Program-made: the position numbers and the translations under genes
Part shown: piece by piece, positions 2,464 to 62,199 of the stretch
How positions within the stretch are numbered: position 1 is the first letter of the stretch
How the letters are laid out: each line of letters opens with the position of its first letter
Notes under the pieces: generated by a model
The model's database searches: none
Told to the model about the DNA's origin: nothing
Seen by the model: only the letters and a program-made list of their open reading frames with translations
NCBI RefSeq assembly: GCF_022379125.1
Contig: NC_061519.1
Location: 23,983,101 to 24,047,100, forward strand
DNA length: 64,000 nt
Reading direction: 5' to 3'
Source: Scophthalmus maximus
Taxonomy: Eukaryota

Positions 2464-3418
2464 TCAAACGTATTCTCGGTTCTCAATGTCCTTCTTGATG
2501 GCTTTTTTAATGCGGTCGATTTCATCTTCGTCTGAACTGTCATATTTATATTCTTTCACTTTCTCGTCGTTGTCCAGAGCAGCCACGTCCTCGTCGCCGC
2601 CCTCCGTCGTGGTCGACTGCAGCTCCTCCCGTATCCCGTTGAGCTCCACCAGACCGTCGTGCAGTTGCGTCGCCACGTCGCGGATTTTGGCAGCGAACTC
2701 CGACTTGGCCCCTTTCTTGAGTTCCTTGGAGTCTTTGGCCACAAAGTAGATGTCCATGCCGACAAAGAGTCCGGTGAGCACACCGGTGGCCATGCTGGCG
2801 ATCTGGACCGCCCTGGCCGCCGTGCTGCCGGCCACGTTGGCGATCTGAACCACGCGCATGATCTCGTTGGCGTTGACGAGGATCGCTTTCCCCGCCATGG
2901 CCCCGTCCTCGTAGAAGCTGCTGGTGAGCGCGGGGAAGTCGCGGTTGTACGCGCTCTTTTTGATCTTGATCAGGTCGAACCGGCGCAGGTTCTCGATTCC
3001 CTGCTTGACGAACTTCAGGCACTTGTTCAGGTCCACCATCTTCTCCTGGTAGTCCTCCACGATCTTCTCCACCTTCTTGCGGTCCATCGAGTTGTTGACC
3101 TGGTTGGAGATGCCGGCGCCCGCCGACGTCAGGCCGCCCGCCGTGGCGACGCCCAGCCCCACCGCCGTCACGATCAAGGAGACTCCCATGGTGACCGGGG
3201 CCAGGGCGAGGCCGGCGATGGTGGCGACGCCCCCGACGGCGCTGGTGGAGCCGCCGGTGATTTGAGCGATCTTCGTCTTCTTGTTGAATTTGTCCAAGCT
3301 GTCGGCGATGCCGTTGAGGTCGATGACGTGCTGCCAGAGGCTCTCGGCGCGCTCCGAGAACAGCTTGTTGAAGACGCGGATTCCCTTCTGCACCTTTTCG
3401 GCCGTCAAAGCGAACGCC
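2464..3418 (-). CDS. Apolipoprotein L (ApoL) family protein, large terminal coding exon (stop codon at 2464-2466)
   Basis: Minus-strand ORF of 332 aa. ApoL hallmarks are present: a Gly/Ala/Val-rich membrane-addressing/pore-like segment (ITGGSTSAVGGVATIAGLALAPVTMGVSLIVTAVGLGVATAGG), flanking amphipathic helices, and a C-terminal acidic/leucine-zipper-like tail. The upstream acceptor tctcttctcag lies at ~3419-3423. GC-rich antisense ORFs on the plus strand are artefacts. Confidence 0.75.
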
Positions 3419-3499
3419 CTGAGAAGAGAGAAGAGTTGTCCCCGCTGGTTACATACCACCATAAGTAGGGCGGGGGTTGCCTAGGAGCCCTTTACTTAC

Positions 3500-4617: not shown

Positions 4618-5450
4618 AGGGTCATGTGACTGAAACAGACCTTTTGTAATCCTGAGGCACAATGAGTGAGACGGCAACAGAAAAGATATACCGACAAGAC
4701 TCGTGGGAAACTGTCGGGAGTTTTGTAGTTTAATGCTCAGTGTCAGAAGGATCTAATAAAACATTTTTGATGGAGCCTTTTTATTTTTTTCCCTACCTCC
4801 GCTGCGTCGTCCTGTGCAGGCCTCTGTACAACTTTGGCCTGAAGCAAATGAAAGACAAACACACAGTTAAAGCAGTTGTAATATCAATATAAATGTTGAT
4901 TTTGGGTAGATATTGGGTTCCAAAAGAATCCAGACAATTACAAAATATTAAAGGCACAGTAACTTAAAAAAAAAATATCTTCAAATCAGCAGCTAAGCAG
5001 CTACATCTACAGCAACAGTATTGCTTTTGCAATTTTAGCAATAACATACTTCATATTTTCAGTGAGCAGCAAGAACGATGCCGACAGGTGACGAACTAAA
5101 CACTGAATGAAAAGGGCGTCGACACAAAACGGACGCCTCCGCACAGGTCACGAAGGCTCACGGGTGATTGGATCGGTAGTGACATCACGGTTGCAAAGTC
5201 CCAACGCAGAGTGACACCAACACGAGAGGGGAAATGTCGGCGCTTGAGGGAATTATTTATTTTAGAATGTAAGGTGGTGATTGGAAACTTTATGAAGCTG
5301 TTCTTTATAAAGTTGATCTTTGTTCCTGTATTTGCCTTTCTCCGTCTCTCTTTTATTGACTTCTTTGCCAGAATGATAAGGATTATTACTTCCTCTAGCT
5401 CTGCTTTGCCCCTTTGAGAGAAAAAAGGTTGGAGGTGCAGTTCCAGACTC

Positions 5451-17962
<12,512 letters not shown>

Positions 17963-41800: not shown

Positions 41801-42225
41801 GAGGATGAGCAAAGCGATTGAGCAGAGGACCGCCGGCCAGGGACGTGGAGAGCAGAGAGTCATTAGGGACAGAGGAGGTCAGAGAAAAGGAGAGACGGGG
41901 TGAATCACTAGCGAGGAGCCTGTTCTGGGTGCTGACGAGGGGAGAGGCGAGGGAAGGTAAGAGGGAAGAGGTGGAGAGAAGGGAGGATGATGTGGAAGAG
42001 AGAATGGACGGCTGGAGAGAGGAGCAGGAGGAGGGTTGGGCTGCAAAGAGAGAAGAGGGCTGGGGCATCGCCATGGAGGTCTGAGCCAAGAACTTGTTCT
42101 CCAGACTCAGAGGAGCAAAGTTAGAGGACAAACTTCTCCCAATAGTGGCCTCCTGCTGCCGCTGCCGCTCTCCTTGGGCCAATGGGTCTACCGGCTGCAA
42201 AGTCAGGGCCCTCATCTCTGTGGAG
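19871..42225 (-). CDS. tep1: Telomerase-associated protein 1 (TEP1, vault/telomerase RNP component), about 45-55 coding exons
   Basis: Minus-strand exons were translated by hand. The N-terminus is MRALTLQPVDPLAQGERQRQQE.., with ATG at 42223-42225, followed by a Ser/Leu-rich low-complexity region. The TROVE/Ro60-like region spans ~37100-41250 (ATLRNLRNMITQGI.. compares with Ro60 ALLRNLGKMTA; AVLLFTDMHDNRTWDQ compares with Ro60 ADVFIVFTDNETFAG). A DUF4062-like exon reads [28 protein letters not shown]. The NACHT P-loop is VVEGGAGEGKTVFM, with further NACHT exons at ~31000-33100. WD40 exons fill 19871-28700 (GHSGGVTSLAFSPDGGRLLSGGKDK; SASYDRTVKLWD; GEVRVWSLPSS). The stop codon follows ..LYFLSWKE at 19871-19873. 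Confidence 0.7.
20516..20620 (-). CDS. tep1: TEP1 WD40 exon (AHSDRISVLRLTNSTIVSASYDRTVKLWDRITKKQ)
   Basis: Acceptor ttttattttcag and donor gtacag on the minus strand. Contains a WD dipeptide motif. Confidence 0.55.
26219..26262. repeat. (CA)n microsatellite in a TEP1 intron
   Basis: Direct reading. Confidence 0.9.
33235..33423 (-). CDS. tep1: TEP1 NACHT Walker-A exon (EDDEAKATSDATEQEVHQGALQRQFFGRGKLLSGAVEMVEQVQTRGGMMVVEGGAGEGKTVFM)
   Basis: Acceptor ttttggcag and donor gtaaat on the minus strand. Contains the P-loop GxxGxGKT. Confidence 0.6.
34637..34928 (-). CDS. tep1: TEP1 DUF4062-like exon (..[53 protein letters not shown])
   Basis: Donor gtaaga after ..QYSW. The R-V-F-[IV]-S-S-T-F-x-D motif is typical of the domain that precedes NACHT in TEP1 and NWD proteins. 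Confidence 0.55.
37751..37780. repeat. (GT)n microsatellite in a TEP1 intron
   Basis: Direct reading. Confidence 0.9.
38715..38878. repeat. Compound (TA)n/(CA)n microsatellite in a TEP1 intron
   Basis: atatacatatatacacacacac.. read directly. ORFs translating as IYIYTH across it are artefacts. Confidence 0.9.
41693..42225 (-). CDS. tep1: TEP1 first coding exon (MRALTLQPVDPLAQGERQRQQEATIGRSLSSNF.., Ser/Leu-rich, loosely repetitive)
   Basis: The ATG is preceded by ..tctccacag. The open frame runs down to a gtacat donor after ..SFEGTS. The 3' boundary is approximate. Confidence 0.45.
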
Positions 42226-42688
42226 AAAACACATCGATCAGAAGGAAAAAGGCCGCAACGAGTTTGAGCCTCTCCTCTGGGTCGCAATCCCTCATAATCC
42301 CAGTCTGCATTGAGTATTGAGATAAGCAGTACAGCAGCATTCCTTCAACTGTTTGACCAAGCATTGTGCCACTGTCATCGAGGGAGTGCTACTCAGCAGG
42401 AAGACTCCATAAAAAGAGACCAAAGTCTGGAAAACAGCCAGCGCACACGGCCCCGACTGACGTTTCAGTTTCACTGGACACCGGGAGAACCACAATGCAT
42501 GAGGAATACGCCCAAAAATTGTAGAATACTATGAAAATCTGAAATTCCCCAAACAGAAGGAAAAAAAATCAGTCATGTACCGATCAAATGGAGAATCAAC
42601 AAGACCAGATGGTTTTTTTGGGGGTTTTTTTTTACTTCACACCATGAACTTGTCTCTCACTGACAGAAAATGTTGGAATAAACGCAGT

Positions 42689-42959
42689 AGCTGCAACAAT
42701 TAAGTGGATTAAATGATTAATCACCAGCTATTTTGACAACCAATTAGTTCTTTTAGTAATGTTTCAAGCAAAAAGGCCAAAAGTTCAGCTTCACAAATAT
42801 TGTGGTATTCTGCTTGTTTTGAAGAAAAAAAATATTTCCGGAGCAGTGGGAAATTATAATGAGCATTTTATTTACTTACTATTTAGTGACATTTTGCAGA
42901 CAAACAATCGAGTAACTGCTCAAATAACTGGAAGATGATTATAATTGTTATTTGCAGCC
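42689..42959. mobile_element. MITE copy (TIRs AGCTGCAACAATTAAG .. GTTATTTGCAGCC), same family as 58557-58904
   Basis: GCTGCAAC and GTTGCAGC termini and an internal gattaa(a)tgattaatc block are shared with the other copy. Confidence 0.45.
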
Positions 42960-43379
42960 TTGTCGAATAACTATATATGTATTTGTGTGTGTATGACATG
43001 ACAATATAGTGAATAAAGTTTAAAGTTGGTCCAGATGTGACTTTTCTTCCCTTTGAGAGGAAGTCTTGTTTTTATTTTTTTTTGTCCCAACAAAGTGAGC
43101 AATTTACCACAAAACACCAACATAAAAACACACAATATACAACATAGAAAAACATGTCCTATGTATATGTAGGATGTCAAAACATACAATAAACCGCAGA
43201 TACACACCAGAGAATTATGATTTCACATCTATTCCTGTAAAAATGTAAACTACTTAGACTGTTTGCAGTCAAGACAAAGACAAGTCGAGACAATCGTGAA
43301 CACTCAACATTACTCATGTTTCCAAGCAGCCTGCTGCGAGTTCATGACTCAGGAGTTTGGAAGGTGTGGTTCTCCTGCT

Positions 43380-43660
43380 GCTGCTGCTGCTGTGCGTTAA
43401 GCTTTGCGCCACCACATTACGCGCAGAACAAACTCACCGCAGACCAAAGTAAAGTCCTCCGGCCGAACGCTGTCTCCGAGCAGAAGTCTGTGTCATGTAT
43501 AGAATCAATGTTTATTAAACTGCAGCGTTATGAGAATCTGCGTGTGGTGACGCCGAGTGCGGCTCCGCCTCCTCCGCACTGTACTTCCTCGTTCAGCAGC
43601 TGCTCGGGCGGGTCTCTGCGGAGCGGAGAGCGCTGATTGGTCAGGATGTTGTGTACTTTT
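43380..43660. promoter_or_regulatory. GC-rich segment with a CCAAT box in reverse (ctgattggtc), a candidate TEP1 promoter or 5'UTR
   Basis: gcggagagcgctgattggtcaggatg lies ~1.2 kb upstream of the TEP1 ATG on the minus strand, with CpG enrichment relative to the flanks. No TSS can be defined from sequence alone. Confidence 0.3.
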
Positions 43661-44443
43661 TTACCGTAATGGCACGAATACAGGCGCTGACGTTGGTCTT
43701 TATTCTTTCTTTTTCTTCTTTTATTAAATTGTTTTACTTATTGACTATAGATCCATCACTGGTTCAAATTTGATAACTTGTTTCTCTTTAAAAGGGTCAC
43801 AACTATATAGTTTGGTTTTTTGAAAATAATTTTCCTGAAATAGTTCTCAGTAATGAGGTAAATCAGTCAAGAGTAAATTGAGTAATTCTTGGGTATTATA
43901 TTGTCTGTCGTGCGCTTTATTAGGAACACCTGCTAATTCATGCAGTCTCATCTAATCGTGTGGCAGCAATGCAACATATACAATTATGTAAATAACAGGT
44001 GAGGAGTTTTAGTTTATGTTCACATCGAACATCCCAGTGGAGAAAATGTGAGCTCAGAGACTTTGACAGGTTCAGATGTGAGAATGTCTGAAACTGCTGC
44101 TGTTCACATGCAAAAAAAAAGAGAGTCTCTGATAAAAACAGACAGCGAGCGAGAGGTGATGAGAGAGAGGTCAGAGGTGATCGAGGGCAAGGCTGGTCAA
44201 CAGAAGCATCTCAGAATGGACAAGTCAACAATGTCAGCCAAGAACAGAAATCTGAGGCTGCAGTGGACACAGGCTGCTCCAAAACTGGACAGCTGAAGAC
44301 GCAGTCTGTTGTGATGAATCTAGATTTCGCAGATGGTGGGGTCAGAATCTGGTAATCTGACAGAATGAATAACCGGTGATGATTTAAATTTTTTTTTCAT
44401 GTATGTTTGGATTTAGTATTTTTTTTACTGTATAATTAGATTT

Positions 44444-45696
44444 TAATTTTTTATTGTATTTTTATATATTTTTATTTTACTGTATGTTTAGATTTTTTTT
44501 CACCGTATGTTTATATACTTTATTTTTACTGTATGTTCATATATTTTTTACTGTATATCTATAATATATATATTTTTCCTGTATGTTCAGATTTTGTATT
44601 TTTCTACTGTATGTTTATATATTTTTTTCATCTGTATGTTTATATATTTTATTTCCACTGTATGTTCAGATTTTCTATTTTTCTACTCTGTTTATATATT
44701 TATTTCTACTGTTTGTTTATATATTTTATTTTTCTACTGTATGCTTATATATTTTATTTCCACTGTATGTTTATATATTTTATTTTTCTACTGTATGCTT
44801 ATATATTTTTATTTCTAATGTATGTTTATGTATTTTATTTTTCTACCGTATGTTTATATATATTATTTCCACATGATATTTTTCTCCTGTATGTTCAGCT
44901 CCGCTGCGACACGGTGACGTTACCGTAACTGTCCGTGTAAGAATCAAAGGAGGAAACGAAACCGCGGTGTTTCCGCTGCAGCAGCAGCGTCAGAAAAAGA
45001 AAAAAAGAAAAAAAAAAAGAAGAAAAAAAAAAAAAAAGGAAAAAGAAAATGTGGCCAGTGAGGACGAACTGAATTTTTTATTGTATTTTTATATATTTTT
45101 ATTTTACTGTATGTTTAGATTTTTTTTCACCGTATGTTTATATACTTTATTTTTACTGTATGTTCATATATTTTTTACTGTATATCTATAATATATATAT
45201 TTTTCCTGTATGTTCAGATTTTGTATTTTTCTACTGTATGTTTATATATTTTTTTCATCTGTATGTTTATATATTTTATTTCCACTGTATGTTCAGATTT
45301 TCTATTTTTCTACTCTGTTTATATATTTATTTCTACTGTTTGTTTATATATTTTATTTTTCTACTGTATGCTTATATATTTTATTTCCACTGTATGTTTA
45401 TATATTTTATTTTTCTACTGTATGCTTATATATTTTTATTTCTAATGTATGTTTATGTATTTTATTTTTCTACCGTATGTTTATATATATTATTTCCACA
45501 TGATATTTTTCTCCTGTATGTTCAGCTCCGCTGCGACACGGTGACGTTACCGTAACTGTCCGTGTAAGAATCAAAGGAGGAAACGAAACCGCGGTGTTTC
45601 CGCTGCAGCAGCAGCGTCAGAAAAAGAAAAAAAGAAAAAAAAAAGAAGAAAAAAAAAAAAAGGAAAAAGAAAATGTGGCCAGTGAGGACGAACTGA
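44444..45696. repeat. Exact tandem duplication of a ~627-bp unit (44444-45069 and 45071-45696). Each copy has an AT-rich ~40-bp minisatellite (tttt(t)actgtatgtttatatatttt..), a GC-rich block with a TGACGT CRE half-site, and a (GAAAAA)n purine tract.
   Basis: ORFs 44507-44818 and 45134-45445 are identical at an offset of 627 nt, and two other identical ORF pairs have the same offset. Copy 2 runs directly into the ZNRF-like 5'UTR. Confidence 0.85.
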
Positions 45697-45874
45697 GGCC
45701 GGACGAAGCACCGCCGAGCCGCACACGACTCCTCCGCAGAGATCGACTGCTGCCATCGACGCTCCCCGCCGACTCGGTCGTCCAGTGCGAGGGACGTTTC
45801 GAGGTGAACTCGTTGTGTCGGTTCGCCCGGAGGAGGAAGCAGCTCGGCCCCCGAAGTAGCTCCCCCCGCTCGAG

Positions 45875-46430
45875 ATGGGGACGAGAGCCAGTCGCCTCCA
45901 GGAGGACCCGGCTCCCTCTGCGTTCGGGAAGGACGGCACAAAGCGGGACTCGTACCGGCGACCCCGCCTCGCCAGGCCCACCAGCCTCATGGTCGACTTC
46001 TCCGGAAGCTTCGAGGACACGGAGGCCAACCGCAGCCGCTCGGAGGAGGGCAGCGACTCGGACCTGGGGCTGCACGGGGCGAGCGCCGACGGCAGCCCCG
46101 CGGACCACCACCACCACGGCGGCGGCGGCGGCGGCATCATCCCCTCCGGCGGGAGCCAGGCGTCACCGGCGGACCACGACGACGGCAGCAGCGAGGGGAA
46201 ACCCGAGGGGGACGGCGGCACCAGCCCGGAGGCTCCCGTCGACGCGGAGCACCGGCCCGCGGAGGAGACAGGCCGCGCGCCCCACCGCACCTTTTCCGAG
46301 CGGCTGCCCGGGAATCGGCACTCTTCCGCCCGCAGCGTCGGCGCAAGATCCGCCCGGGTCCGGGGCACGCACCAGCGGCCGATGTCAGAGGCATGGATCG
46401 GCCTGTACCGTGTGAACAACCGCCATGGCA
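45875..46430 (+). CDS. ZNRF1/ZNRF2-family RING E3 ubiquitin ligase, coding exon 1 (MGTRASRLQEDP.., GC-rich disordered N-terminus with HHHHGGGGGG; family certain, ZNRF1 vs ZNRF2 paralogue unresolved)
   Basis: Begins with an MG N-myristoylation-type motif. The donor gtaagt at 46431 leaves phase 1. Overlapping ORFs in the other frames and on the other strand of this GC-rich exon are rejected because only this frame splices onto the zinc-finger and RING exons. Confidence 0.65.
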
Positions 46431-48655
46431 GTAAGTCATATTAACAATAATAATAATGATCATAATAATAATGATAACTAGCTGGTGTCCATGTGTGAGT
46501 TGCCGGGGGTTAGACATGAAAACAGCTCATTTCCAGGAACAGGACGAGTTCAGCTCAAGTGACAGGGGAATTCGTGGATGTGTCACATCTTGGCACCAGG
46601 ATGAGCCACATTAAAATGACACAATGCACCAGCAGCATCCCAATGTGAGACACCCGGGGTATGATGACGGATGACCCTCATCACCACACCGCGGACCTTC
46701 GACTGAGAGAAGGCGTGATGCAGAGAAATAATAATAATAATACAGACATGATGTCCCGGATGAAGGTGCTCGTGTTCATAGTTTGACAATTTGCAGAGGC
46801 CTGAGTTGACGGTTATCACGCTAATGTCAGGTTTTTAACTCTGGGGGTGTGAATCACCATGGTAACATTACAGGTGAAGTCCGAGACGAGAGATCAGAGC
46901 CAGTCGCCAGTCCCCAACTACTGGCCAATCAGATCACTGGAAAAACCCACGCGTCATCGTTCTACAGGACCCCGACTGGGACAAAAGAGGTTGTTTTTTT
47001 TAGTGACATATAATGAAGCGCAGCAGAAATATTTATAGATGAGTGGAACCATGTTGCTTCTTCCAGACTTTTCACGTGTCCACACAAACGGTTTCTGATA
47101 AACGGAGGGAGAGTTTACGACACTACCTATGAATACATGGGCTCCTTAATATTAGAGCTTCATTTGAATTTGATGAAGATTATTTGATTGCCGACGGAAT
47201 CGCCCACAATGTTTGACTTTCTTTTTCTATCACTGCAGCTCGGGAACAACACGAGGAGACTGTGACGATAGATAGTAATAAAAACGTAATACTATCTCTT
47301 TTATCAGTTAAATGATCCACACACTGATCAATATTTCTAATGAGCACGAATGAATAGCTCAGTGTGATTGATGACATCACACATGGACGTCTTCTGTGAC
47401 ATTGCTTCAGCGCCTCGTCATCACAGTTTGATCATCGCCAGACATCAGGGCAAAAGATATTCACTCGCTAAATTCCTGTGCTTGTTAACATTATATTTCG
47501 GGGCTGACTTTGAATTGAAGTTCTTTTCTATTTGAGTTCTTTGATCATAATATTTTTCATTTCACTTTGTAGAACGCTGAAACCACATCGACCTGCACGT
47601 ATCAGCTTTCTTTTCGTATCATATTAGAAAACTTTATTGTACGCTTCTGACGATGTCGCTTATTATTATAGCGACTCCGTCTCTTCCACATGAACGCGCT
47701 GGTACGGACAGAGAAATGGAGCGTTCACTGAGACAGTTGATGTCCATCTTCGTGGTACAGGTTATCCAGGATGGTCAGTGTTAGGTTAAGTCAAACCAAA
47801 TAAGGAAAACTTAATCCTGGGTATGTTGAACTCGCTTCGTAGGACAGGACCCAGAACAACTCTTAAGGTCAAGTAAAGGTTTCTAAACTGACACTATGAA
47901 TTCTTCATCAAAACATCCCCCCAGCTCAACCCTCAATCTAGCCCTTCTGAAATTAAAATGGATTATGTGAGGAATTTACATTCCTGAGCAGATTATCCTC
48001 TTTTACCCGTGCGTACATGCTAACTGAAATCATCAGAGACCCTATTGTGTGAAGCGGAGCTGTGGCGTAAAAAAAACAACTGTTAAGAAGCGACGACACA
48101 CGAGCCCTTTCATGTCCCAACTGTGGTTGTGCACGGGGCCGTGCAAGTGGAAACAAAAACACAAAGCTATCGACCGCATTTTCGTTGAAGTGCATTAAAA
48201 TGGGAACAAGAGTTTTGCAGAGGAAGTGTGAGTTCTCACTTGGTTTGGACCTGACAAATGTTTTTTTTTTAAAGCCGAAACGCAGAAGTTGCAGTGGGCT
48301 TCCCGGGGCCAGCCCCCTCGAGCAAGTGTCGGGAAATGGGTCACAACTTCACATGCGCGCTCTCACTTTGCTGGCAGCAGCTCACAGATGGGAGGAGAAT
48401 GTAGGGCAGCGAGGCAACGCTTTTCTGCCTGTCCCGTCCCGTCCCATCCCCGCATTGAAATGAAATGAAGCCTTCAAACTTTTCTCAAAATAACATCAAT
48501 CACATCGTGTCTGTGACGAGAGTGCATCCATTACTCTGGGCTGCCGAATCTAGATGTCCAAAACACGGCACTTGTTGTTAAATGTGATGTGCGCTTCATC
48601 CATCATTCATACCTCGCCATACTCACAGCTCTCTCGTGTCTCTGCTTTGTTGCAG

Positions 48656-48751
48656 ATATCCGCTGTCCTTTCTGCTCGAAGCCTTTCCCGGGGGGTCGGA
48701 TTGAGGATCACCTGTTGAGCTGCCTCACGTCTCCTCCCCTACCGTACAATA
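48656..48751 (+). CDS. ZNRF-family exon 2 (N IRCPFCSKPFPGGRIEDHLLSCLTSPPLPYN, the C2HC zinc-finger part)
   Basis: Acceptor ttgttgcag. Matches human ZNRF2 FKCPVCSKFVSSDEMDLHLVMCLTKPRITYN. Confidence 0.7.
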
Positions 48752-48862
48752 GTAAGTATCATCATCACCGTCCTTATCACAGAATTGCACGTATTGGCGT
48801 TGTGATTTAAAAGGCCGGAAAACACTCTTTAAGGTCGCTTTGTGTGTTTTGTGTGTTCACAG

Positions 48863-48968
48863 CGGATGTGCTTAGTAAAGACAGCGGAGAGTGCTCCATC
48901 TGTTTGGAGGATCTGGTTCAGGGGGAGACCATCGCCAGGCTGGCTTGCCTCTGCGTCTACCATAAGAG
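48863..48968 (+). CDS. ZNRF-family exon 3 (T DVLSKDSGECSICLEDLVQGETIARLACLCVYHK, first half of the RING-H2)
   Basis: Matches ZNRF2 EDVLSKDAGECAICLEELQQGDTIARLPCLCIYHK almost residue for residue. Confidence 0.75.
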
Positions 48969-50258
48969 GTAACTGAGTTCACTTGATGTGTTTGTGCATG
49001 ACCAATAAACCAGACAGACAAAACAAGTAGGACGATAAGAAAAGGCGTACAGTGCATACGGTGGGAAAAATGTTTTTCAGGTCAGACGTGATTTCCAGAT
49101 CTGAAAAAAGTGTGGCAACTGGGCTGAGGTAGAAAAATAAGGAAGCAAAAGTTGTTCTGTGCTATTGCACATTATCAGAAAAAGAGACCCGTGTTCCTTC
49201 TCTGTGATATGATGTCCTCAAAAGTTATCTTGACAAACCCTGAAGTGAGTCGCCTCATCAAGAGTGGTTATGTTGGCCACAAGATAAAAACGGATGATTG
49301 TGGTAAAACTCCAGAGAAAAGACAGTTTGCCTTTTGTTTCTGTCTTTGTTACAGTTGGTGAATATTTGCAAAAAGAGATTTCACATCTACGGAAATATGA
49401 ATACAGACGCATCACTGTTAAATTTGAATTAAGTGTAGTCACAAAGACTTTCTTATAACTTAAGAAATTACTATGTAAATGTTTACTATAAATCACGTGT
49501 GAAGTCATTTCCATCTTAGAATCATGCTGCAGTGTTCCCCCAACTTGGACTTCCCCAATTTTCAAGTAGCCATATTCACCCACCCCCCCCCCCCCAGTAA
49601 TTTTGAGCCTGATGAGGTCAGACATTTACCAGGATTATGTAATCGATCATAATGAACATCCTGCCTGCTACATGATGCCACACGTCAGGTTAAACCGTGA
49701 CGTATAAAACCAGCAGAGAGAGAAGTGTCGAAACAGAGGGTTACAAATTAAATTGCTGCAAAAGTTCATCTTGCATAAAGCAGCCACACGTCACAACGTC
49801 TTTTTAGATATTTGTGTTCACAGTGGTACATGCCGTCAGTTTTGTACCGCGGTTTGTAGGCGTGTCCGTTTGACTGATCCATCCGGTAGATCGACATAGA
49901 TTTGGAAACAATGACAGTTGTAAATAATTACACAAACTTGACACAAACTGTCTGAAGAGAGAGAGAACTGCAAATCATTGCAATTTAAAAGCGGCGCAGC
50001 TTGTTAATGTATTTGCTTGTTATTTGTTAATTGACCAGACGTATAATTTCTATATTAGTAATTAAGGCCAATGAAAATAAATACAAGCCCATCACACCTC
50101 TCGTGTTCCTAGTCAGTGTCAGTGTCGTTTCACATGCCCTCGGGGGAAATTCCACAATCTGACAGCGACTGCACCGCAGAGGCTTTGGCATATGAACACG
50201 ACTTCATCAAAAATGTCGTGTCCTCACCCCTTTTTCTCTGCCACTTTTCTCCCTGGTA

Positions 50259-50316
50259 GCTGCATCGACTCCTGGTCCAAGGTGAAGCCCTGCTGCCCCG
50301 AACATCCCTTCGATTG
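50259..50316 (+). CDS. ZNRF-family terminal exon (S CIDSWSKVKPCCPEHPFD*)
   Basis: Matches ZNRF1 and ZNRF2 CID(S/E)WFEVNRSCPEHP(A/S)D-stop. Stop codon TGA at 50314-50316. Confidence 0.75.
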
Positions 50317-53212
50317 ACTCACGGGTCACGTGTTTTCTGCCCAGTGACCAACCCGACTCAGGTGTGTAGTAAGCACGTGTTAGACCTGCTGAAGGTCCAG
50401 GACCTGTCAGCCAAGCTTCTTAGTTAGTTGTGATCCATTTGATCAGTGTGGAATCTGCAAGATAGAAAAAGAAAGTTATTTTAACTTTGACCATATATTT
50501 CAGTCCAGTTTCCAATATTTCAGTCGGTAATATATCAAGTGTTGAGGCTCAAAAGCCGGCAACATTTTTTGTACATCCACAAAGTTGTAGCATCAGTATG
50601 TGAACTAGTGGTATGGTACTGTATCCATAGCAACGGGTATTGTATATTCCAGCATGGAAAGTTTACAGAGAACAGAAAAGTTGGGTGCGTAAAACCTGTC
50701 TAAATTATTTCACGTTCAAACAAAATATGTGAGTTATTCCGATCAGGAGCAGTCCCAGGTTCTGACAAAAGAGCGATAACCACGACCAGTCCAGAAGAAA
50801 AATGAGAATCGATTAACGTGAGCAATAATCCCTACTCAAGTCCGAGATCATTAACATGAGCCAGGTGTGTTTATCAAACAGAAATCAAATGGGCATTATT
50901 AATGGCGCAGAGAAAATCATACAAATGATCCATGTCTGTGTTGTTTTTGCAGGTAATCAGGCCCTTAACTGTGATCTCACAAATCTAGATACAGTGGAAC
51001 AGACATGTCTCTGAACCTTTGCATTTTTTTTTGCAGACTTCAGCCCTCTGTCTAATGGTCACTCTTGTCCTTTTCCCCCCACCTTTACAGGAGACTACAC
51101 TGAATCCTAATAAAATCCCAATAAAGATGTGTTAATGAATAAATAAAAAATCCCCCCTGTCCCCCTTCGGACGCATACTAATATTTCCGTGGAAAACAGA
51201 AGATCCCAACAGGAAGCTACAGTTAGCCACACCCCTGCGTTTTCCATTTGGATCGGCCCATTTGAACTTGGTCTCGACCATTTCAAGCCAAACTCCAAAA
51301 CAACAAAACAAAAACAGCTGCTCCGGTCTAATCTGTGGTCCAGGCCCTTGTTGGAACAGAACAGAAGTGGAGGGGTCCCCCCCCCCTTTTTTTTATTTCA
51401 CAGACTTGGCTTGTAAAATGCATTAACTAGATATTATCGTGCCAGAGCGATGGAACCCGCCTCAGAAAGATCTCGAACTTGGGAAAGAACACGGAGGGCG
51501 GAAAAGTTGTCTGGACTGTGACTCTGGATCCTCTTGTGTATTTCCCCCCTTCCCTTCTCTTGAATGGGATCGTTTATTTTGGTCATTTTTAATTTTTTTT
51601 TAAAGTATTTTAAGTGTTTTGCAACCAAAAAAAGAAAAGAAAAAAGAAAGAGTACTCATCCATGTCCATACATCGGGTGAATGTTTCCTTCCCTCGGCTC
51701 GGCACTGGGAGAGCGTGAACTGTTACCACATAAACGTTGGTGTGTTTTGAACGAGCCGGAGATTGAGGGATGGTCTTTTGGTGAACGGGTGGCCGTCGTT
51801 ACACGGTGTTAATCTGTTTTTATATTACCTGTAAACATTTCAGGGGGATTTTGTGGGCTCCTTCCTTCCATTAGGAGGTCAGTTTCTTGTAGGTGGTTAG
51901 TAAAGCGCTGAGTTTTAATGTGCTGCTACACGCTGAGTGTTTCTGGAAGGTTGGTGGTATTTCATTGGGTCACGGCAGCGCTGGTGTTGGCACCAATTTG
52001 AGCACTTTTGTCCCTCAAGGCTTTTTTTTTTTTTTTGCCCCACATAAAGTCTGGGTTGTGTATGTGTGTGTGTATGTATGTTAAGATGATGACCAGGGAC
52101 AGGAAATGTCCTGAGAATGCCTGTATATTCAAGAAAGTGCGTGCGCGTGCGTGTGTGTTTACTGTAAACTGCCAAGAAGTCTGCTTGGTGAGGCGGGTTA
52201 ACCTTTCTTTAAATTTGAATGCTCTTCTTCCTTTTTTATTTTTTTGTAAACTCGAGTCACGCTGGCGAGCATCCTGTGACATGCGGCATTGGTACGAAAC
52301 ATTGGTGACTCGCGGGGGCCCACGTTCCACGTCTGAAAGCGGTTTTGAGTTATTTGTTTCCCTCCTCGAAATACTCTCTCGGGTGCAGTCCGGATCTGGG
52401 TTTTTTTTTCCTCTCTCTCTCCCCCTTTTTTCTTTTGGACCAGACCCCACGCGACAGTTTCGCCATCTGGGGACATCAATGCCAGATCGGGGCGGGATAA
52501 CGGGGACGGACGGACCGAGGGATGTATTTTTTGGGGGCATGTTTACACCATGTGGCATCTGCCGCTCTCTCCCCGACACTGGAGGCAATGGACAGCTGCT
52601 TGTTAATAATTACACAACTACCCCGCCTTCTTTTTTTTCATCTTGTTTTTAAACAGGATTTTAGATATGACATCATTACATTATGATAATGATTATCTGC
52701 TAAATGTGTCAAATGGCTTTCCTTTGCCTTTGTTTTGTGTGTGCGTTGATTGCCTTTGCCTGGTGACGGGGTTCTTGTGCAAGCGGGTATTTGTCGAGTT
52801 TTTGTTTTTTTTTGAGGACTGATGCGGAGGCCCCCGACTGCGAAGCTGCTCGACAGATGCCGTCTGACAGGTTGTGCGCAGGCCAAGGCAAACTGGGAGA
52901 GGACAAAAAATCGTTCGCTGTCGGAGCCACGTGTCACGGTCTTTGCCACAGCGATATCGATCCGTTTGGAGGTCGGCCCGGTGCACAGGTTTCCCCACTG
53001 GCCAGTTTGTTCTCCAGAGCCTGATCTTCTTTTATTCCCCCTCCTTTTTCTGATCCCTGGTGTGTTCTGAGGTGCTATGACTTGTCCCACCACTCCAGGG
53101 CAGCCCTGCGCATGTTTCTCTCTCTCCTTTTTTCTTTTGTATTGGAGACTAGAAAAAATGATGCCAAAAGTCCGTCTGTGCATTGGGGGGGGGGGCATTG
53201 TGTGAGAGAGTG

Positions 53213-53641
<429 letters not shown>

Positions 53642-55839
53642 GAACTAGCTCCTCTCCACTCGTTTTGTACAGATGTCTCTAAACTCCTTGGTCTTGAATC
53701 GCGGGGCACCGATGCCCCGTCTGCATTGAGACTGACGACGTCTTTAGATGAGAATGTTTTTTTTGTTGTTGTTTTTTTTTTTCAAAGAGCCACCACAGCA
53801 GCACCTGCATCCCCCCCGAGATATGGACAATCTTGCCTTCTACTCTGGTATAAGAGACAAATTGAATTTTTATTTATTAAAATTGTAAATATGTAATGCA
53901 ATTCAAGAAAAATGGCTTTTGGTCTCTGTCTGTTCAATATACTGTTTCTAAGCTCCAATCTTTTGTATGTCTCAGAAATGGTTTTTTATATGTATTTTTT
54001 ACAATAAATATGTGTGCGAGATGTTTTGTGAACGTCTTTGTTTTGTGTCTCTGATTGTCGGTGACGTGTTTGTGGTCGTTTGTGGAGCAGAAGTAATGGT
54101 GGAAATTCTCACTTTTCACTCAGCCCGTTTGCACAGGGAGGGACCTTTTTTCTTTCTTTCTTTCCTCATTTCAAACCATCAAAAAGTGAAAGCCGGCGTA
54201 ACAAATGACACCCACATTTAAACACAAGGAGTTTTTATCGCAGAGCCTCCTCAAGCACAACACTGTCGTCGTTCTCTGACACGAGTGATCCAGCTGAACA
54301 AGGTAACAGGTATTCTACGATTTTAATTCATTGACAGCAAACATTTGAATAATCTTAATCCACTATTATCTCATCATGCAGTTGATGAAGTTTGGGGTTT
54401 TATTTGCTGTAAGTTTTGAGATCTCTGGTAGCAGATGTCTCAGGGATGGAAACATCAAAATTTGAAAAAAAGATTTGGGTGAACTGATTTTAAGTGTTCG
54501 GAGTCAGAGCAGCGAGTGTAACTGTAATAATTAATCTTTTGGACTTCATTTTTTTTTATAAATTTTTTCATTCTAATTCTACAGTAAATCAAAGGGAATA
54601 CGACTCTGTGCCCTAAATAATAATCGACATGTCTCTGTTCACTGTGTGTCGCTTCCTCCAAGAACAGGAACTTAAACGTTAAGATAAAATGAACTAGATT
54701 TAAAATAACATCTCTGCAAAACAATGGGCTTAAAATATAAATAAAATGTACAAAATATACAAATCAAAACATCAGTGATGTTACGATTAAACTGAACACG
54801 TTTGCACGAACGGGTAAATTGCTCGTTTTAAGGGTTTAGTACAGTGAGCTATGGTGAATGTAAATCTACCAGATGTTAATATACAGTATAGTTTTATATT
54901 TCACTGCAGACACATGTCACAGGTGGAAATAATAAAATCCTGTTTCCAAAAATAAAAAATTCAACCTTTAATAAATGTGAATAGTTCAATACACAAATCC
55001 AAAGATGATAAAGTTTTTAAACTGAATGATATGACGCAAAAAGAGGTTCCCACAATGTTCGCTGCTCTCAAGAGAAGCTCGAGTTCCACTTCCTAATGTT
55101 TATTATGCTCTTGAGCAACGAGTATGCAGCAAGTCTGGTTGTGGTCAAACATTCAGAGCTGATGTAAGCCACCGGAATTATATTACAAAATATTATCATT
55201 ATATAAACATGGAGCGTCCCCACTTCTGCTTCTTTGCAGATGTAGGGACAATTTCATATCTTTTTTTTTCCGAACTTTTTTTAAAAACATATAACAGAAT
55301 ATTCCCTGACATTGGACATAAGGGAAAAATATATAATAATACTAATACAAATAATAAATAATGATACAAATATTAAATAAATCTAAATAAAATACAATAA
55401 GAATTGTGAAATGTATGTACGTACATACTCAGTTATACACATGTACATACAATCAACACAAATTAATAAATAGCTGATAAATTAAATTAAGCAGAATAAG
55501 TGAGAATTCACCCAAATGTTGCAGTGGAGCAGGTTCATTTACATAGAAACCTATGACCTTTCCTGTGAATCTCATCCAATGTAATATGTTACATCAACAC
55601 ATTGCATCTTATTGGACACTCAGGTATTGTGTGACCATCTTTGAATGAAAGTATAAAAAATATCTTTCATTTTTTATTGTATAGTTTTCACTTCTGATTC
55701 TGCTCCCATTCTTAAAGAACTTGTTTTTTATTTATTTTTCTCCTTACTGGCTTTTTAATTTGCTCTGTCTTTCCCCTCATTTCTCTACTTTCTCTTTTTG
55801 CGAACTCCTTGGTTCTAAAAACACGATTGGGATGCTGAA

Positions 55840-56151
55840 ATGACTGAACCTCGTCTTTGGCCCCCAGTTCCCTCCACAATGTCCGACATGGCCGTCACAT
55901 CCAAGGAGACGCAGGACGCCCCTGGCTCCGACACGTCTGCCCCACCACCACCACCATACTCTTACCAAGGGCAGCAGCCTCCGCCCTACACCACAGACCC
56001 CGCGATGTACTTTCCACCCAAGACTGAGGCGACCTGCATCAACCAGCCAGGCGCTGGGTACATTTGCCCAGAAGCCCAGTGGGACGAGACTCCCATCCCA
56101 GCCTCTTCCTCATTCGACGACAAGACAGTGAGAAGAGCATTTGTTCGAAAG
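55840..56151 (+). CDS. TMBIM-family protein (Bax-inhibitor/Lifeguard family, GRINA/TMBIM1-like), exon 1: Pro/Tyr/Gln-rich N-terminus ending ..DDKTVRRAFVRK
   Basis: Matches the conserved pre-TM1 motif D(D/E)(K/R)x(I/V)R(x)AFIRKV of GRINA and TMBIM1. Donor gtttg follows. The alternative start ATGTCCGAC at 55879 is possible. Confidence 0.6.
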
Positions 56152-57213
56152 GTTTGTTTTCTGAGTTTGGTTTTGTTTTTGGCTACTAATCTCCAGAATA
56201 TCTGCAGTTATTCAAAACAAAAAAAAATGATTTTACAGTATTTGGTGTTTCACGTCTTCTCACGGGAGCCCTCTTCTTAAAACAAACTTCCCAACCTGAA
56301 GACGGGGCCCAAATAACAGGGGGTTTGAGATGATTAACAGATGCTTTTGATGTTTATTGATGAATATAAACTAATATGACCTGTAGAAATTATTATTATT
56401 ACTATTAAAATACACCAATCTGAGGAAGAACAAAATAAATCATAGATATATGCAGCCTGTTAAAAGAGGCCTGTAGTTTCAGGGGTCAGAGGGTCGAAAA
56501 GGTCAGGAACCATTGTCTCGCACAAATGAGCCAAAACTATGAATCATGACAAGAAAAAATCACGTTGATTCAAAAGCCATCTATTAAGTAAAGAAGGAGA
56601 AGGGATTCTAATTATTGCGTCAAGCAAAGTATCTGCCCTGAGGATTATTGAGCTGATCAAGGTGACGTGTCAGGATAATGGTAAAATGTCCCTGTTTCTA
56701 TATCTAAGTTACATTTTTTTCAGGCACGAATGGAAACCATCTTAGTTTTTAAAGCCATAGTATTTTCCAGCTTAATGATAGTTAAATAAAAAAGAGAAAT
56801 TACACAGATTTTCCTTTTTGGGTGACAAGAAAAAATCATGTCTTGATTTTGGAAGACGTACCGAGTTGAGTTTCTTAAAACGGCCCTGGGACTTGACACC
56901 TTTGTCAAGAAGGGTTTCTGGAGAGTGAACTCAAGTGTCATGCAGCCTAGAAAGCACACGAATAATCATACATTCTTATTTTTAATCAGTTAAGTGCTTC
57001 ATTTTTCCGACATGAAAGTGCTTTCCTTCCCACGAAAGGTCACATATCATGTGTATCATTCTCAAATCAAAAAAACGTTTCCCTTTGTTCTTAAAATCCA
57101 TGAAAATCTTAAGCGTTATGCATATTACTATTTTTAAAACACAAGGACCTTTCGCCGCAGCTCACTTATTAATGAAACTCTTCTCCCCCCGCCCCCCCCC
57201 CTCCGCCGTGCAG

Positions 57214-57414
57214 GTGTTCTGCATCCTGACGCTGCAGCTGCTGTTCACCTTCAGTGTGGTGTGTGTGTTCACCTTCTCCAGCGTGGTCAAGGAGGCGGTG
57301 CAGACCAACCTGTGGGCTTACCTCAGCTCCTTCATCGTCTTCGCTGTGGTCGCCATCACCCTGAGCTCCTGCAAGTCCGTCAGCCGCCGTCACCCCTGGA
57401 ACATAGTGGGACTG
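57214..57414 (+). CDS. TMBIM-family exon 2 (VFCILTLQLLFTFSVVCVFTFSSVVKEAVQTNLWAYLSSFIVFAVVAITLSSCKSVSRRHPWNIVGL)
   Basis: Aligns with GRINA [60 protein letters not shown]. Acceptor ccgccgtgcag and donor gtgagt. Confidence 0.75.
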
Positions 57415-57844
57415 GTGAGTAGAAGTGAAATGTGTTGGTCAAGTCCTTGTGCTGCTGCCACATCAGCTAAATGCTGCTCAGTAAAAAGCTCTTAACAGGA
57501 ATACCACCCAAGTAGTAGTCAAAGTATTTAATTCAAAAAGATTTTTTCGTTAAGTGTACATGGAAAACATCTCAGTTTAGACCTCTCTTGGGATCTGAAG
57601 ATGTATAAATAGATTTTGTTTGCCTCTGTAGGGAAATCGGTTTGCACTTAGAAACACTCACAAGGGCCGTTTTTCCACACACACACCAACAAAACAAAAA
57701 CCAAAACAATCAACAGACCGAACCAATTGTTAAATCTTAAAACTTGGATTTTTTTTGTGATGAACAAAGTTCTATCTTCATCTAATATATCAGCGAGGGA
57801 GGGAAAATATATTTAAAATGCTCAAGTTTTTTTTATCCCGACAG

Positions 57845-57973
57845 GTCGTGGTCACCCTGAGCATGTCGTACATGGTGGGAACCATCGCCTCATTCCACGA
57901 CACCACCGCTGTTGTCATCACTATAGGAGCGACGCTGGCGATCACTCTGGCAATCATTGCTTTCTCAGCACAG
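57845..57973 (+). CDS. TMBIM-family exon 3 (VVVTLSMSYMVGTIASFHDTTAVVITIGATLAITLAIIAFSAQ)
   Basis: Aligns with GRINA [44 protein letters not shown]. Confidence 0.75.
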
Positions 57974-58295
57974 GTCAGTCGACCGGGCTCACATTCTTCT
58001 AAATGTCCCCGTCAAGTAATGTGCATGGTTTTCAGGATCCGTTTTTTGGCCTTCTATGGCACGCAACTCTAACATCACCAGGACAACCGCTCAAAAATTG
58101 TATCCAAGGAAGAAGAAGAAGAGGGAAGTGTAGCGCTGAAACGATTAGATGATTCCTGTACTAGTCGACGCAAACTGACAGACATTTTTAATTCAGTTCA
58201 GAGAGATTATTAAATGTATCTGTAGTTTCAGCTCTCGACTTAATTAATGTGTAACCTATTGAAATTGATCATAAATGTCTTTGTTCCATTTGCAG

Positions 58296-58439
58296 ACCCG
58301 TTATGATTTCACTATATGTTACGGGGTTCTGCTGATTCTGGCCGTGGACCTGATCATGTTCTGCGTCTTCTGCACATTCTACTACTCCTACGTCGCAGAC
58401 GTCGCCTACGGATGTCTGGGAGCTCTTCTGTTTTCACTG
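58296..58439 (+). CDS. TMBIM-family exon 4 (TRYDFTICYGVLLILAVDLIMFCVFCTFYYSYVADVAYGCLGALLFSL)
   Basis: Aligns with GRINA [41 protein letters not shown]. Confidence 0.75.
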
Positions 58440-58556
58440 GTACACTATATACACCATGATCATTAATATATTGTCTACAGGAGCTCACACTTATTCTAAA
58501 AACTGAAGTTTTTTGTAAATGAGTACATTAAATGCAATTGTGCGTCTAAAAAACTA

Positions 58557-58904
58557 AGGCTGCAACTAACGATTATTTTCATAATCGATTAATCTGTCGG
58601 TTGTTTTCTCGATTTAACCGATTAGTTGCTTGGTTCAAAAGATGTCATAAAATGGTGAAAAATGACGATCGTGTTTCCCAAATCCTACCATGATGTTTTG
58701 TTCTGTCCACACACCAAAGATATTTAGTTTACTGTCATATAGGAGCAAAGAAACCAGAAAATATTCAGATTTAAGAAGATGAAATCAGAGAATTTACTTT
58801 TTTTTCATAAAAACTACTTGAACCAATTAATCGACTATCAAAATAGTTGGGGATTAATTTAGTAATCATTAACTAATCGATTAATTGATTAACTGTTGCA
58901 GCTC
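58557..58904. mobile_element. MITE / non-autonomous DNA transposon (TIRs GGCTGCAACTAACGATTA.. / ..TAATCGATTAATTGATTAACTGTTGCAGC) in TMBIM intron 4
   Basis: Clear terminal inverted repeats of ~25 bp. The AT-rich body has cgattaatcgat palindromic blocks. The family is recognisably a common teleost interspersed repeat, and two further copies lie in this window. Confidence 0.55.
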
Positions 58905-59208
58905 TACAAAAAACATTAATATTATTGGTAATAACAGCCCAGTGAAATATAATATGACAATATAACTCTTACAGGGGCCTCACCTTAACTATTGCTGTTA
59001 CTACTTTTCTATTTTTACTTGGTACTTTTACTAAGTTTTGAAAGTATTTATGTACTATTCAACTGTGTATTGCTACTTACTTGGCTGAAGCCAAAACAGT
59101 TACATGAATTTCAGCCACTTTGAATTGTTTTCCTGCTGTGACGTGTGAAAGCGTCTTTCTTACCCTGTCTGTCCTGAATCCTTGTCTCCTCCTCTCCCTC
59201 CCTCCCAG

Positions 59209-59343
59209 TTCCTGTTGGTCGACTGTCAGCTCATGATGGGCGCCATGAGCTACCGCCTGGATCCCGAGGAATACGTCAATGCTGCTCTCATGCTCTACCT
59301 CGACGTAGTCCTCATCTTCCTCTACCTACTGGGGAGGAAGTAA
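59209..59343 (+). CDS. TMBIM-family terminal exon (FLLVDCQLMMGAMSYRLDPEEYVNAALMLYLDVVLIFLYLLGRK*)
   Basis: Aligns with GRINA [46 protein letters not shown]. Stop codon TAA at 59341-59343. AATAAA at 59527-59532. Confidence 0.75.
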   Translation, partial: FLLVDCQLMMGAMSYRLDPEEYVNAALMLYLDVVLIFLYLLGRK

Positions 59344-61618: not shown

Positions 61619-61743
61619 AGTGTGACGGAGTTCTGGGGGTCCGGTCCGGTCTGTCCCAGGCCCTTGGTGCTGTGTTTTCCAGTTGGCAGATTATTGGCCT
61701 CGTAGTCGGCATCTAGCAGCTCGTGACAGTCTCCCAGTGCAAC
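61619..61743 (-). CDS. parp2: PARP2 catalytic-domain exon (VALGDCHELLDADYEANNLPTGKHSTKGLGQTGPDPQNSVTL)
   Basis: Matches PARP2 (L)SEVALGQCNELLEANPKAEGLLQGKHSTKGLGKMAPSSAHFVTL. Donor gttagt leaves phase 2 (ct|g = Leu). The acceptor AG lies directly after the (TG)n tract, which is an unusual GT-rich 3' splice context. Confidence 0.65.
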
Positions 61744-61747
61744 CTGC

Positions 61748-62199
<452 letters not shown>

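Follow-up and report, generated by a model that had tools for sequence, protein, structure and literature searches.

We analysed a 64,000-nucleotide stretch of contig NC_061519.1 of the turbot, Scophthalmus maximus (assembly GCF_022379125.1), hereafter called the window, in which a TEP1 gene on the minus strand and a ZNRF-like E3 ubiquitin ligase gene on the plus strand lie head to head. All positions are those of the window. The interval of about 3660 bp between the two start codons contains a repeated segment of 627 bp. It is likely, in our judgement, that this is a very young head-to-tail duplication, which has yielded two identical promoter and transcription start site (TSS) modules of the ZNRF-like gene 627 bp apart.

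The coding sequence of the ZNRF-like gene (45875-50317, plus strand) was reconstructed by splicing four exons (45875-46430, 48656-48751, 48863-48968 and 50260-50317), and it translates into a RING protein of 271 amino acids in which the Pfam domain zf-RING_2 is found. The product is 100% identical to 'putative E3 ubiquitin-protein ligase ZNRF2-like [Scophthalmus maximus]' (P0001), and its identity to teleost ZNRF1/ZNRF2 entries is 53-89% among the matches listed. By these matches it belongs to the ZNRF family of E3 ligases, whose marks are a C-terminal module of zinc finger and RING-H2, an N-terminal MG and orthologues named ZNRF1/2. A preliminary description of the window had given both the start codon at 45875 and the identity of this gene correctly.

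The TEP1 coding region (19874-42215, minus strand) was recognized from domain hits in translated exons running from 42215 down to about 19874, with Pfam TROVE, DUF4062, WD40 and TEP1 beta-propeller matches and a C-terminal exon ending in ...KLYFLSWKE. The combination expected of TEP1, i.e. TROVE, DUF4062/NACHT and WD40 propellers, is therefore present, and in two other turbot assemblies the genes predicted here show the complete set of TEP1 domains. The gene and its strand had been described correctly, with a start at 42225; the start codon occupies 42213-42215, with its A at 42215. Protein searches in which TEP1 exon 2 or the DUF4062 exon served as the query gave short exon-sized open reading frames (ORFs) only, and neither a full-length turbot TEP1 nor a transcript.

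Structure of the tandem duplication

Copy 1 of the duplicated unit covers 44445-45071 (627 bp), and copy 2, which directly abuts it, covers 45072-45695 (624 bp), both in plus-strand orientation. At an offset of 627, 573 nucleotides are identical without a break (44445-45017 = 45072-45644). Beyond changes in the length of A-runs the copies match again, at an offset of 624, up to the end of the unit. A global alignment of the two copies gives no substitutions and three single-A deletions, all in the A-rich tract. The 2x 627-bp tandem duplication that had been proposed is thus borne out, as two contiguous head-to-tail copies of high identity, and because no substitution is found in 624 bp the duplication is very young. 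The two units together make up 1251 of the ~3660 bp between the start codons (34%), so that the interval is not 'mostly' duplicated unit as had been stated. The 64-kb window contains no Ns and holds no other long perfect repeat besides this one.

Each unit is composed of about 450 bp of minisatellite, a conserved core promoter of about 85 bp, a transcription-start region, an A-rich tract that is expanded in turbot, and an upstream open reading frame (uORF). The minisatellite, which the preliminary description had also seen in each unit, is AT-rich and was delimited from Tandem Repeats Finder (TRF) rows and a direct-repeat family to 44381-44898, with a unit of 26-28 bp (54-bp double unit) and about 18 units. 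Both copies open with this array (TRF period 26-28/54 bp, about 16-18 units, 69-78% matches), whose unit length falls within the 10-100 bp of minisatellites.

As the array begins already at 44381, the 5' breakpoint (44445) lies inside the minisatellite. The 3' breakpoint lies in the 5' untranslated region (5'UTR) of the ZNRF-like gene, at the last base of the TGA stop codon of the uORF. The junction sequence GTGAGGACGAACTGAATTTTTTATTGTATTT occupies 45058-45088, and the junction microhomology is one nucleotide, a single A which opens each copy (44445 and 45072) and recurs after copy 2 (45696). In a comparison of the breakpoints no similarity beyond this one shared base was found.

Promoter, 5'UTR and uORF of the ZNRF-like gene

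The second copy had been said to end where the 5' sequence of the ZNRF-like gene starts. This boundary has to be moved: by their match to related species, the final ~175 bp of each unit already belong to the core promoter and the beginning of the 5'UTR of this gene. The block 44909-45016 (= 45536-45640) aligns by blastn just 5' of the orthologous ZNRF-like ATG in four percomorphs (E-values of 7e-20 for Larimichthys, 2e-13 for Scomber, 1.5e-9 for Anabas and 4e-6 for Oryzias), and 5' of the block the other species carry unrelated AT-rich or simple-repeat DNA. The aligned blocks have a common order of elements: GTGACGTTACCGTAACTGT; CAAAGGAGGAAGCGAAA with a GGAA core, which we take to be ETS-like; ATTTCCGCTGCAGCAGC; a short A-rich stretch; and GGAAAATGTGGAC...AACTGAGGCC. 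The A-rich stretch is short in the other species and has grown to about 56 nt in turbot.

From blastn to the four percomorphs, a multiple alignment and motif counts, the distal copy of the core promoter was placed at 44909-44991 (plus strand), with GTGACGTTA at 44914-44922, TTACCGTAA at 44920-44928, a GGAGGAAACGAAAC stretch and TTTCCGCTGCAGCAGC. The proximal copy is at 45536-45618 (plus strand), with GTGACGTTA at 45541-45549 and TTACCGTAA at 45547-45555. The element gtgacgtta, earlier reported as CRE-like (cAMP response element) in each copy, is indeed present in both (44914 and 45541). The spacing of ~280 bp given for it is not, the distances to the end of its own unit being 158 and 155 bp; the second lies 334 bp before the ATG. 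Only the half-site of a CRE, as GTGACGTTA, and not the palindrome TGACGTCA, is found. TGACG is kept in four of six species (turbot, Larimichthys, Scomber and, as TGACGC, Anabas) and is missing in Oryzias and in the species of contig L012. The invariant core of the promoter is ACCGTAA, inside TTACCGTAA.

The 64 kb contain the 9-mer TTACCGTAA just three times, against 0.34 occurrences expected, at 43661-43669, 44920-44928 and 45547-45555, which is once in the TEP1 promoter block described below and once in each ZNRF-like promoter copy; in the five genomes compared the 9-mer is conserved in both blocks. In sequence it resembles the PAR-bZIP D-box (TTACGTAA) with one additional central base. A literature search for TTACCGTAA returned primers and vectors only. 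The edge of the promoter is indel-prone. In another turbot assembly (GCA_006346445.1, our L001) an 8-bp insertion, AGCTGATG, is found at about 9700, corresponding to 44898/44899 of the window and thus exactly at the boundary between minisatellite and promoter, and the A-run lengths of the A-rich tract vary among all alleles.

The start of transcription was located with spliced mRNA contigs assembled from RNA-seq of related species. The 5' ends of five of them (L004, L005, L010, L011 and L013) fall inside the promoter block, between TTTCCGCTGC and the start codon of the uORF (uATG). Contig L013 begins at CCATTTCCGC, L004 begins 11 nt 5' of TTCCGC, L010 and L011 begin about 20 nt ahead of the uATG, and L005 begins 4 nt ahead of it. 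As a sixth contig, L012, reads further upstream, such ends give a downstream bound only for the TSS. In turbot the start of transcription would then lie no further downstream than about 45587-45669 for copy 2 and about 44960-45045 for copy 1, and the 5'UTR belonging to the proximal promoter would cover 45587-45874 (plus strand).

With a conserved non-coding block directly 5' of the transcript ends in the contigs of the relatives, each unit appears to comprise the conserved core promoter of the ZNRF-like gene in full, together with the region where transcription starts and the opening ~110 nt of its 5'UTR, and the allele in this assembly appears to carry two tandem promoter/TSS copies. The idea of a duplicated promoter-proximal block therefore stands in a sharper form, since what was copied is the whole core promoter, the TSS region and ~110 nt of 5'UTR with its uORF.

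The uORF has seven codons, MWPVRTN*, at 45673-45696 (plus strand), with its copy-1 counterpart at 45049-45072; both copies retain it intact, because the junction falls on the last base of the TGA. It is opened by AAAATGTGG and lies about 200-230 nt 5' of the main ATG. The uATG is kept in every percomorph sequence that was examined (about 10, including L003, L004-L008 and L010-L013), and the uORF is absent from the sequence upstream of the ZNRF-like gene of Esox. Its length is seven codons in eight sequences, four in Larimichthys (MWTH*, by an in-frame 9-nt deletion) and nine in L012 and L013 (MWTEVKNLF*). The remaining peptides are MWTERTN* in Scomber and L004, MWTDSRT* in Anabas, MWTAGMN* in Oryzias, MWTDVAL* in L005, MWTETRD* in L010 and MWTETTD* in L011. 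The start codon and the reading frame are thus kept across species, with frame-preserving changes and inside mRNA contigs, and translation is putative. The uORF shares its kept start codon and its short length, mostly seven codons, with conserved short uORFs in other vertebrate 5'UTRs; unlike those, its peptide is weakly conserved (MW[T/P]....). The leader from the proximal promoter would be ~287 nt long with one ATG, and that from the distal promoter ~914 nt long with 18 ATGs.

The predicted TEP1 promoter and the spacing of the two genes

Exon 2 of TEP1 begins at 42217, after an acceptor AG at 42219-42218. On the minus strand the sequence directly 5' of the TEP1 ATG is CTGATCGATGTGTTTTCTCCACAG followed by AG, which comprises a branch-point-like CTGAT, a polypyrimidine tract and CAG, and which is conserved in five species. 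The acceptor is kept even in Anabas and Oryzias, which do not share the ATG.

A second conserved block (43438-43672, minus strand) was delimited by a five-species alignment, a donor scan and blastn against Anabas, Scomber, Larimichthys and Oryzias. Its motifs on the minus strand are, in order, ATTACGGTAA, GACCAATCAG, CAGCTG and GAGGAAGT; TTACGGTAA is at 43669-43661, and CCAAT, within GACCAATCAG, at 43640-43636. About 200 nt past the CCAAT there is a splice donor, G/GTGAGTT (G/GTAAGTT in medaka), with 43438 as the last exon base. Block and donor are present in all five species, in Larimichthys without the CCAAT. A GC block with CCAAT had been noted at ~43560-43650; the CCAAT is confirmed, on the minus strand, and the block is part of what we regard as the conserved TEP1 promoter. 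From the position of these motifs, the promoter would extend over about 43575-43672, the TSS would be at about 43520-43580, and a non-coding exon 1 would run from 43438 to about 43560.

Given the conserved donor and acceptor, ~1.2 kb of the interval (43437-42218, about 1220 nt, minus strand) is predicted to be TEP1 intron 1. The interval is therefore no single shared intergenic region, as it had been presented. It would hold, for TEP1, the promoter, exon 1 and intron 1, and for the ZNRF-like gene about 290 nt of 5'UTR. The predicted intron includes a segment (42689-42959) which had been called a miniature inverted-repeat transposable element (MITE). The repeat tool reported no terminal inverted repeat for it, its ends match only in GCTGCAA and CAATTA with a gap (7+6 nt), and neither the window nor about 75 kb from other fish loci holds a second copy. 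A MITE would be expected to show terminal inverted repeats, a target-site duplication and many dispersed copies; by these checks of the window and the compared loci the segment is no more than a putative, decayed MITE.

An alternative TEP1 exon 1 inside the ZNRF-like block, with the GGTAAC of the palindrome as donor, is suggested by the gene predictions of Anabas and L001. It was rejected in favour of the donor at 43438, as five species have kept this donor as one unit with the motifs upstream of it (CCAAT, CAGCTG and GGAAGT), and the TEP1 starts of Anabas and L001 are judged less likely. At the TEP1 start site GTG is found in Anabas and an ATG is lacking in Oryzias (loci L006, 4384-4400 and 5703-5748, and L008, about 4706-4720, respectively); turbot, Larimichthys and Scomber have ATG. 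The Anabas gene call starts at an ATG within the ZNRF-like promoter block. The use of the TEP1 start codon thus differs, or is mis-annotated, among species.

At the 3' end of the predicted intron, ~360 bp (42228-42590) can be aligned, at a level of about 65%, to the sequences of Larimichthys, Scomber, Anabas and Oryzias. The conserved stretch includes GACTTTG..CCTTTTTATGGA and CAATGCTTG.TCAAACAGTTGAAGGAATGCTGCTGAAC, and may act as an enhancer within the intron or as an alternative promoter of TEP1. A motif like an interferon-stimulated response element, GAAACTGAAACGTCAG, at about 42450-42470 is found in turbot alone.

The head-to-head order of TEP1 and the ZNRF-like gene is common to Larimichthys, Anabas, Scomber and Oryzias. 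Esox differs, with an ApoL gene instead of TEP1 lying 5' of the ZNRF-like gene. The distance between the TEP1 block and the ZNRF-like block is about 190 bp in Oryzias, about 275 bp in Anabas, about 1.0 kb in Scomber and about 2.45 kb in Larimichthys; in turbot it is 1.25 kb to copy 1 and 1.9 kb to copy 2. The turbot spacer consists of AT-rich DNA, a probable Tc1-like remnant and the minisatellite. The probable remnant is a degenerate Tc1/mariner transposase at about 43900-44350 (plus strand) with the frame-shifted translation ...MSAKNRNLRLQWTQAAPKLD..., ...DESRF...GVRIW, motifs which we take to resemble those of Tc1 transposases. Pfam gave no match for it, and no further copies were found in the window or in the compared fish loci. 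Since the two blocks are so close in Oryzias and Anabas, the ancestral arrangement was probably a compact divergent promoter pair, which would have been pushed apart in turbot by the transposon remnant, the minisatellite and then the duplication.

Interpretation of the duplication and neighbouring features

The comparison within turbot was made with two other assemblies, L001 and L002, found by exact full-protein look-up. A look-up of the exon-1 ORF product for further turbot sequences found nothing. Both assemblies hold exactly one unit, virtually identical to either copy in the window; apart from the insertion in L001 and one single-nucleotide polymorphism in L002, differences are in the A-run lengths, in all of them. 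These single copies speak against two promoter modules in turbot, as do the ZNRF-like TSS positions, which are carried over from other species, and contig L012, which extends about 215 nt further 5' of the block. The single copies would also be expected if the second copy were an artefact of assembly or polishing and turbot truly had one unit, and so would the fact that the window copies differ solely in homopolymer lengths, which are typical sites of long-read error; the single copies would also fit a rare second copy. However, L001 is an Illumina-only assembly made with SOAPdenovo2 at K=29 (PMC7067757), and L002 (CP026249, GCA_003186165.1) is the Illumina assembly 'sm5' re-scaffolded with linkage maps (PMC4909306, PMC6105115). 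As Illumina-only assemblies normally collapse a perfect 627-bp tandem repeat, a single copy in these two cannot discriminate between the possibilities. The junction in the window is clean and lies in unique sequence, there is no gap or N nearby, and no other suspicious duplication is seen in 64 kb, for which reasons we hold a real event to be quite probable and an artefact to be unlikely.

Three further explanations concern the nature of the interval and of the unit. A single 3.6-kb bidirectional promoter shared by TEP1 and the ZNRF-like gene, with the CRE-like element as the key duplicated site, would agree with the conserved head-to-head order, with TGACGT in each unit, and with the Anabas and L001 predictions which put the first TEP1 exon in or beside the ZNRF-like block. 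Yet a conserved promoter, exon 1 and donor belonging to TEP1 alone lie 1.25 kb away, and a conserved acceptor precedes the TEP1 ATG exon; Oryzias and L012 have lost TGACG, whereas ACCGTAA is invariant. Bidirectional promoters are reportedly defined, as a rule, by TSSs less than 1 kb apart. The turbot genes are divergently oriented, but their predicted TSSs are at least 1.4 kb apart, and we consider a shared promoter very unlikely. Growth of the unit by ordinary unequal exchange in a minisatellite, i.e. a higher-order expansion of a variable number of tandem repeats (VNTR) rather than a one-off duplication, would explain why the 5' breakpoint is within the array, which makes up 70% of each unit. 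Such an exchange is hardly credible, as the 3' breakpoint is in unique conserved 5'UTR that resembles the 5' breakpoint by one base only and the period of 627 bp is unrelated to that of 26-28/54 bp. Finally, a unique segment of ~95 bp followed by an A-rich tract of ~56 bp has the look of a retroposed element, or of a short interspersed nuclear element, present twice. This reading was rejected and is left with next to no probability, because four other species have kept the block in the orthologous place, directly 5' of the ZNRF-like gene, with a short A-rich stretch there; the window also holds no other copies.

We prefer to see here a small tandem duplication of an ordinary kind, or possibly an error of assembly, by which a conserved promoter/TSS/uORF module is doubled. 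Since the sequences at the two breakpoints are unrelated and have a single base in common, one non-homologous event of the microhomology type, by replication slippage or end joining, would be likelier than unequal exchange in the minisatellite. Known promoter tandem duplications mediated by microhomology show the same adjacency and orientation, the lack of a spacer, 1-nt junction homology and near-100% identity, and the copied segment likewise spans the promoter and the 5' end of exon 1; the turbot case has nothing unusual in this respect. Polymorphisms of promoter-proximal VNTRs or minisatellites are known for example from the insulin-gene VNTR and the MAOA uVNTR. The turbot locus is like these in having an AT-rich minisatellite immediately 5' of a core promoter and a change of copy number near the TSS, and is unlike them in that the event was one 627-bp duplication of array plus unique promoter and UTR and not a gain or loss of 26-28-bp units. 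Vertebrate bidirectional promoters are said to contain NF-Y and ETS motifs. The gene pair resembles them in its conserved head-to-head order, its CCAAT and GGAA-core motifs and the distance of 190-275 bp between the blocks in medaka and Anabas; in turbot the blocks are 1.25 kb (distal) or 1.9 kb (proximal) apart, with an own conserved block for each gene.

The proximal promoter should work normally and make the normal mRNA, with a leader of ~287 nt and one uATG, since nothing has changed in the sequence that follows it or in the 450 bp that precede it. The distal copy does not differ from the proximal one in its core or in what lies upstream, and is for this reason probably competent. Its transcripts, if made, would run through the second minisatellite and promoter, giving the leader of ~914 nt with 18 uATGs, and such an mRNA should be poorly translated, or the distal copy may interfere with the proximal promoter. 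TEP1 would be driven from a promoter of its own, of the NF-Y/ETS type, which lies about 1.25 kb to the left and is untouched by the duplication. The net effect of the duplication is probably neutral to mildly negative. It seems doubtful to us that it is a real segregating turbot allele with two active tandem TSS clusters which measurably changes the output of the ZNRF-like gene, and possibly of TEP1, as a natural dual-promoter expression quantitative trait locus of a farmed fish, the distal cluster giving the leader of 914 nt rich in uATGs or interfering with the proximal promoter.

Beyond annotation the significance is small. What had been a '3.6-kb intergenic region' resolves, as far as sequence comparison can tell, into intron 1 of TEP1, a separate conserved promoter for each gene and a 5'UTR, and a small structural variant has doubled one of the promoters. 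Should the variant be real and polymorphic, it would offer a handy natural experiment on interference between tandem promoters and on leader isoforms rich in uORFs; should it be an artefact, it points to a local error of assembly where a gene has its 5' end. The conserved uORF and the TTACCGTAA motif in both promoters are small regulatory leads for a conserved gene pair.

Some further features were observed in the rest of the window. A long ApoL-like ORF is located at the left end (2467-3480, minus strand). A gene of the Bax1-I/TMBIM family lies 3' of the ZNRF-like gene at about 55880-59340 (plus strand), and the same neighbour is found in Anabas and Esox. A second tandem repeat, with a period of about 441-444 bp and up to 64 shared 40-mers, covers 12100-13300 and overlaps repeated exon-like ORFs with the motif QESGGMFSGMFKK (minus-strand ORFs at about 11400-15300), so that the region has the appearance of a gene whose exons are repeated internally. 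Long (GT)n/(CA)n microsatellites are present at 53480-53645, 61730-61940 and 7000-7600, one of them 3' of the stop codon of the ZNRF-like gene.

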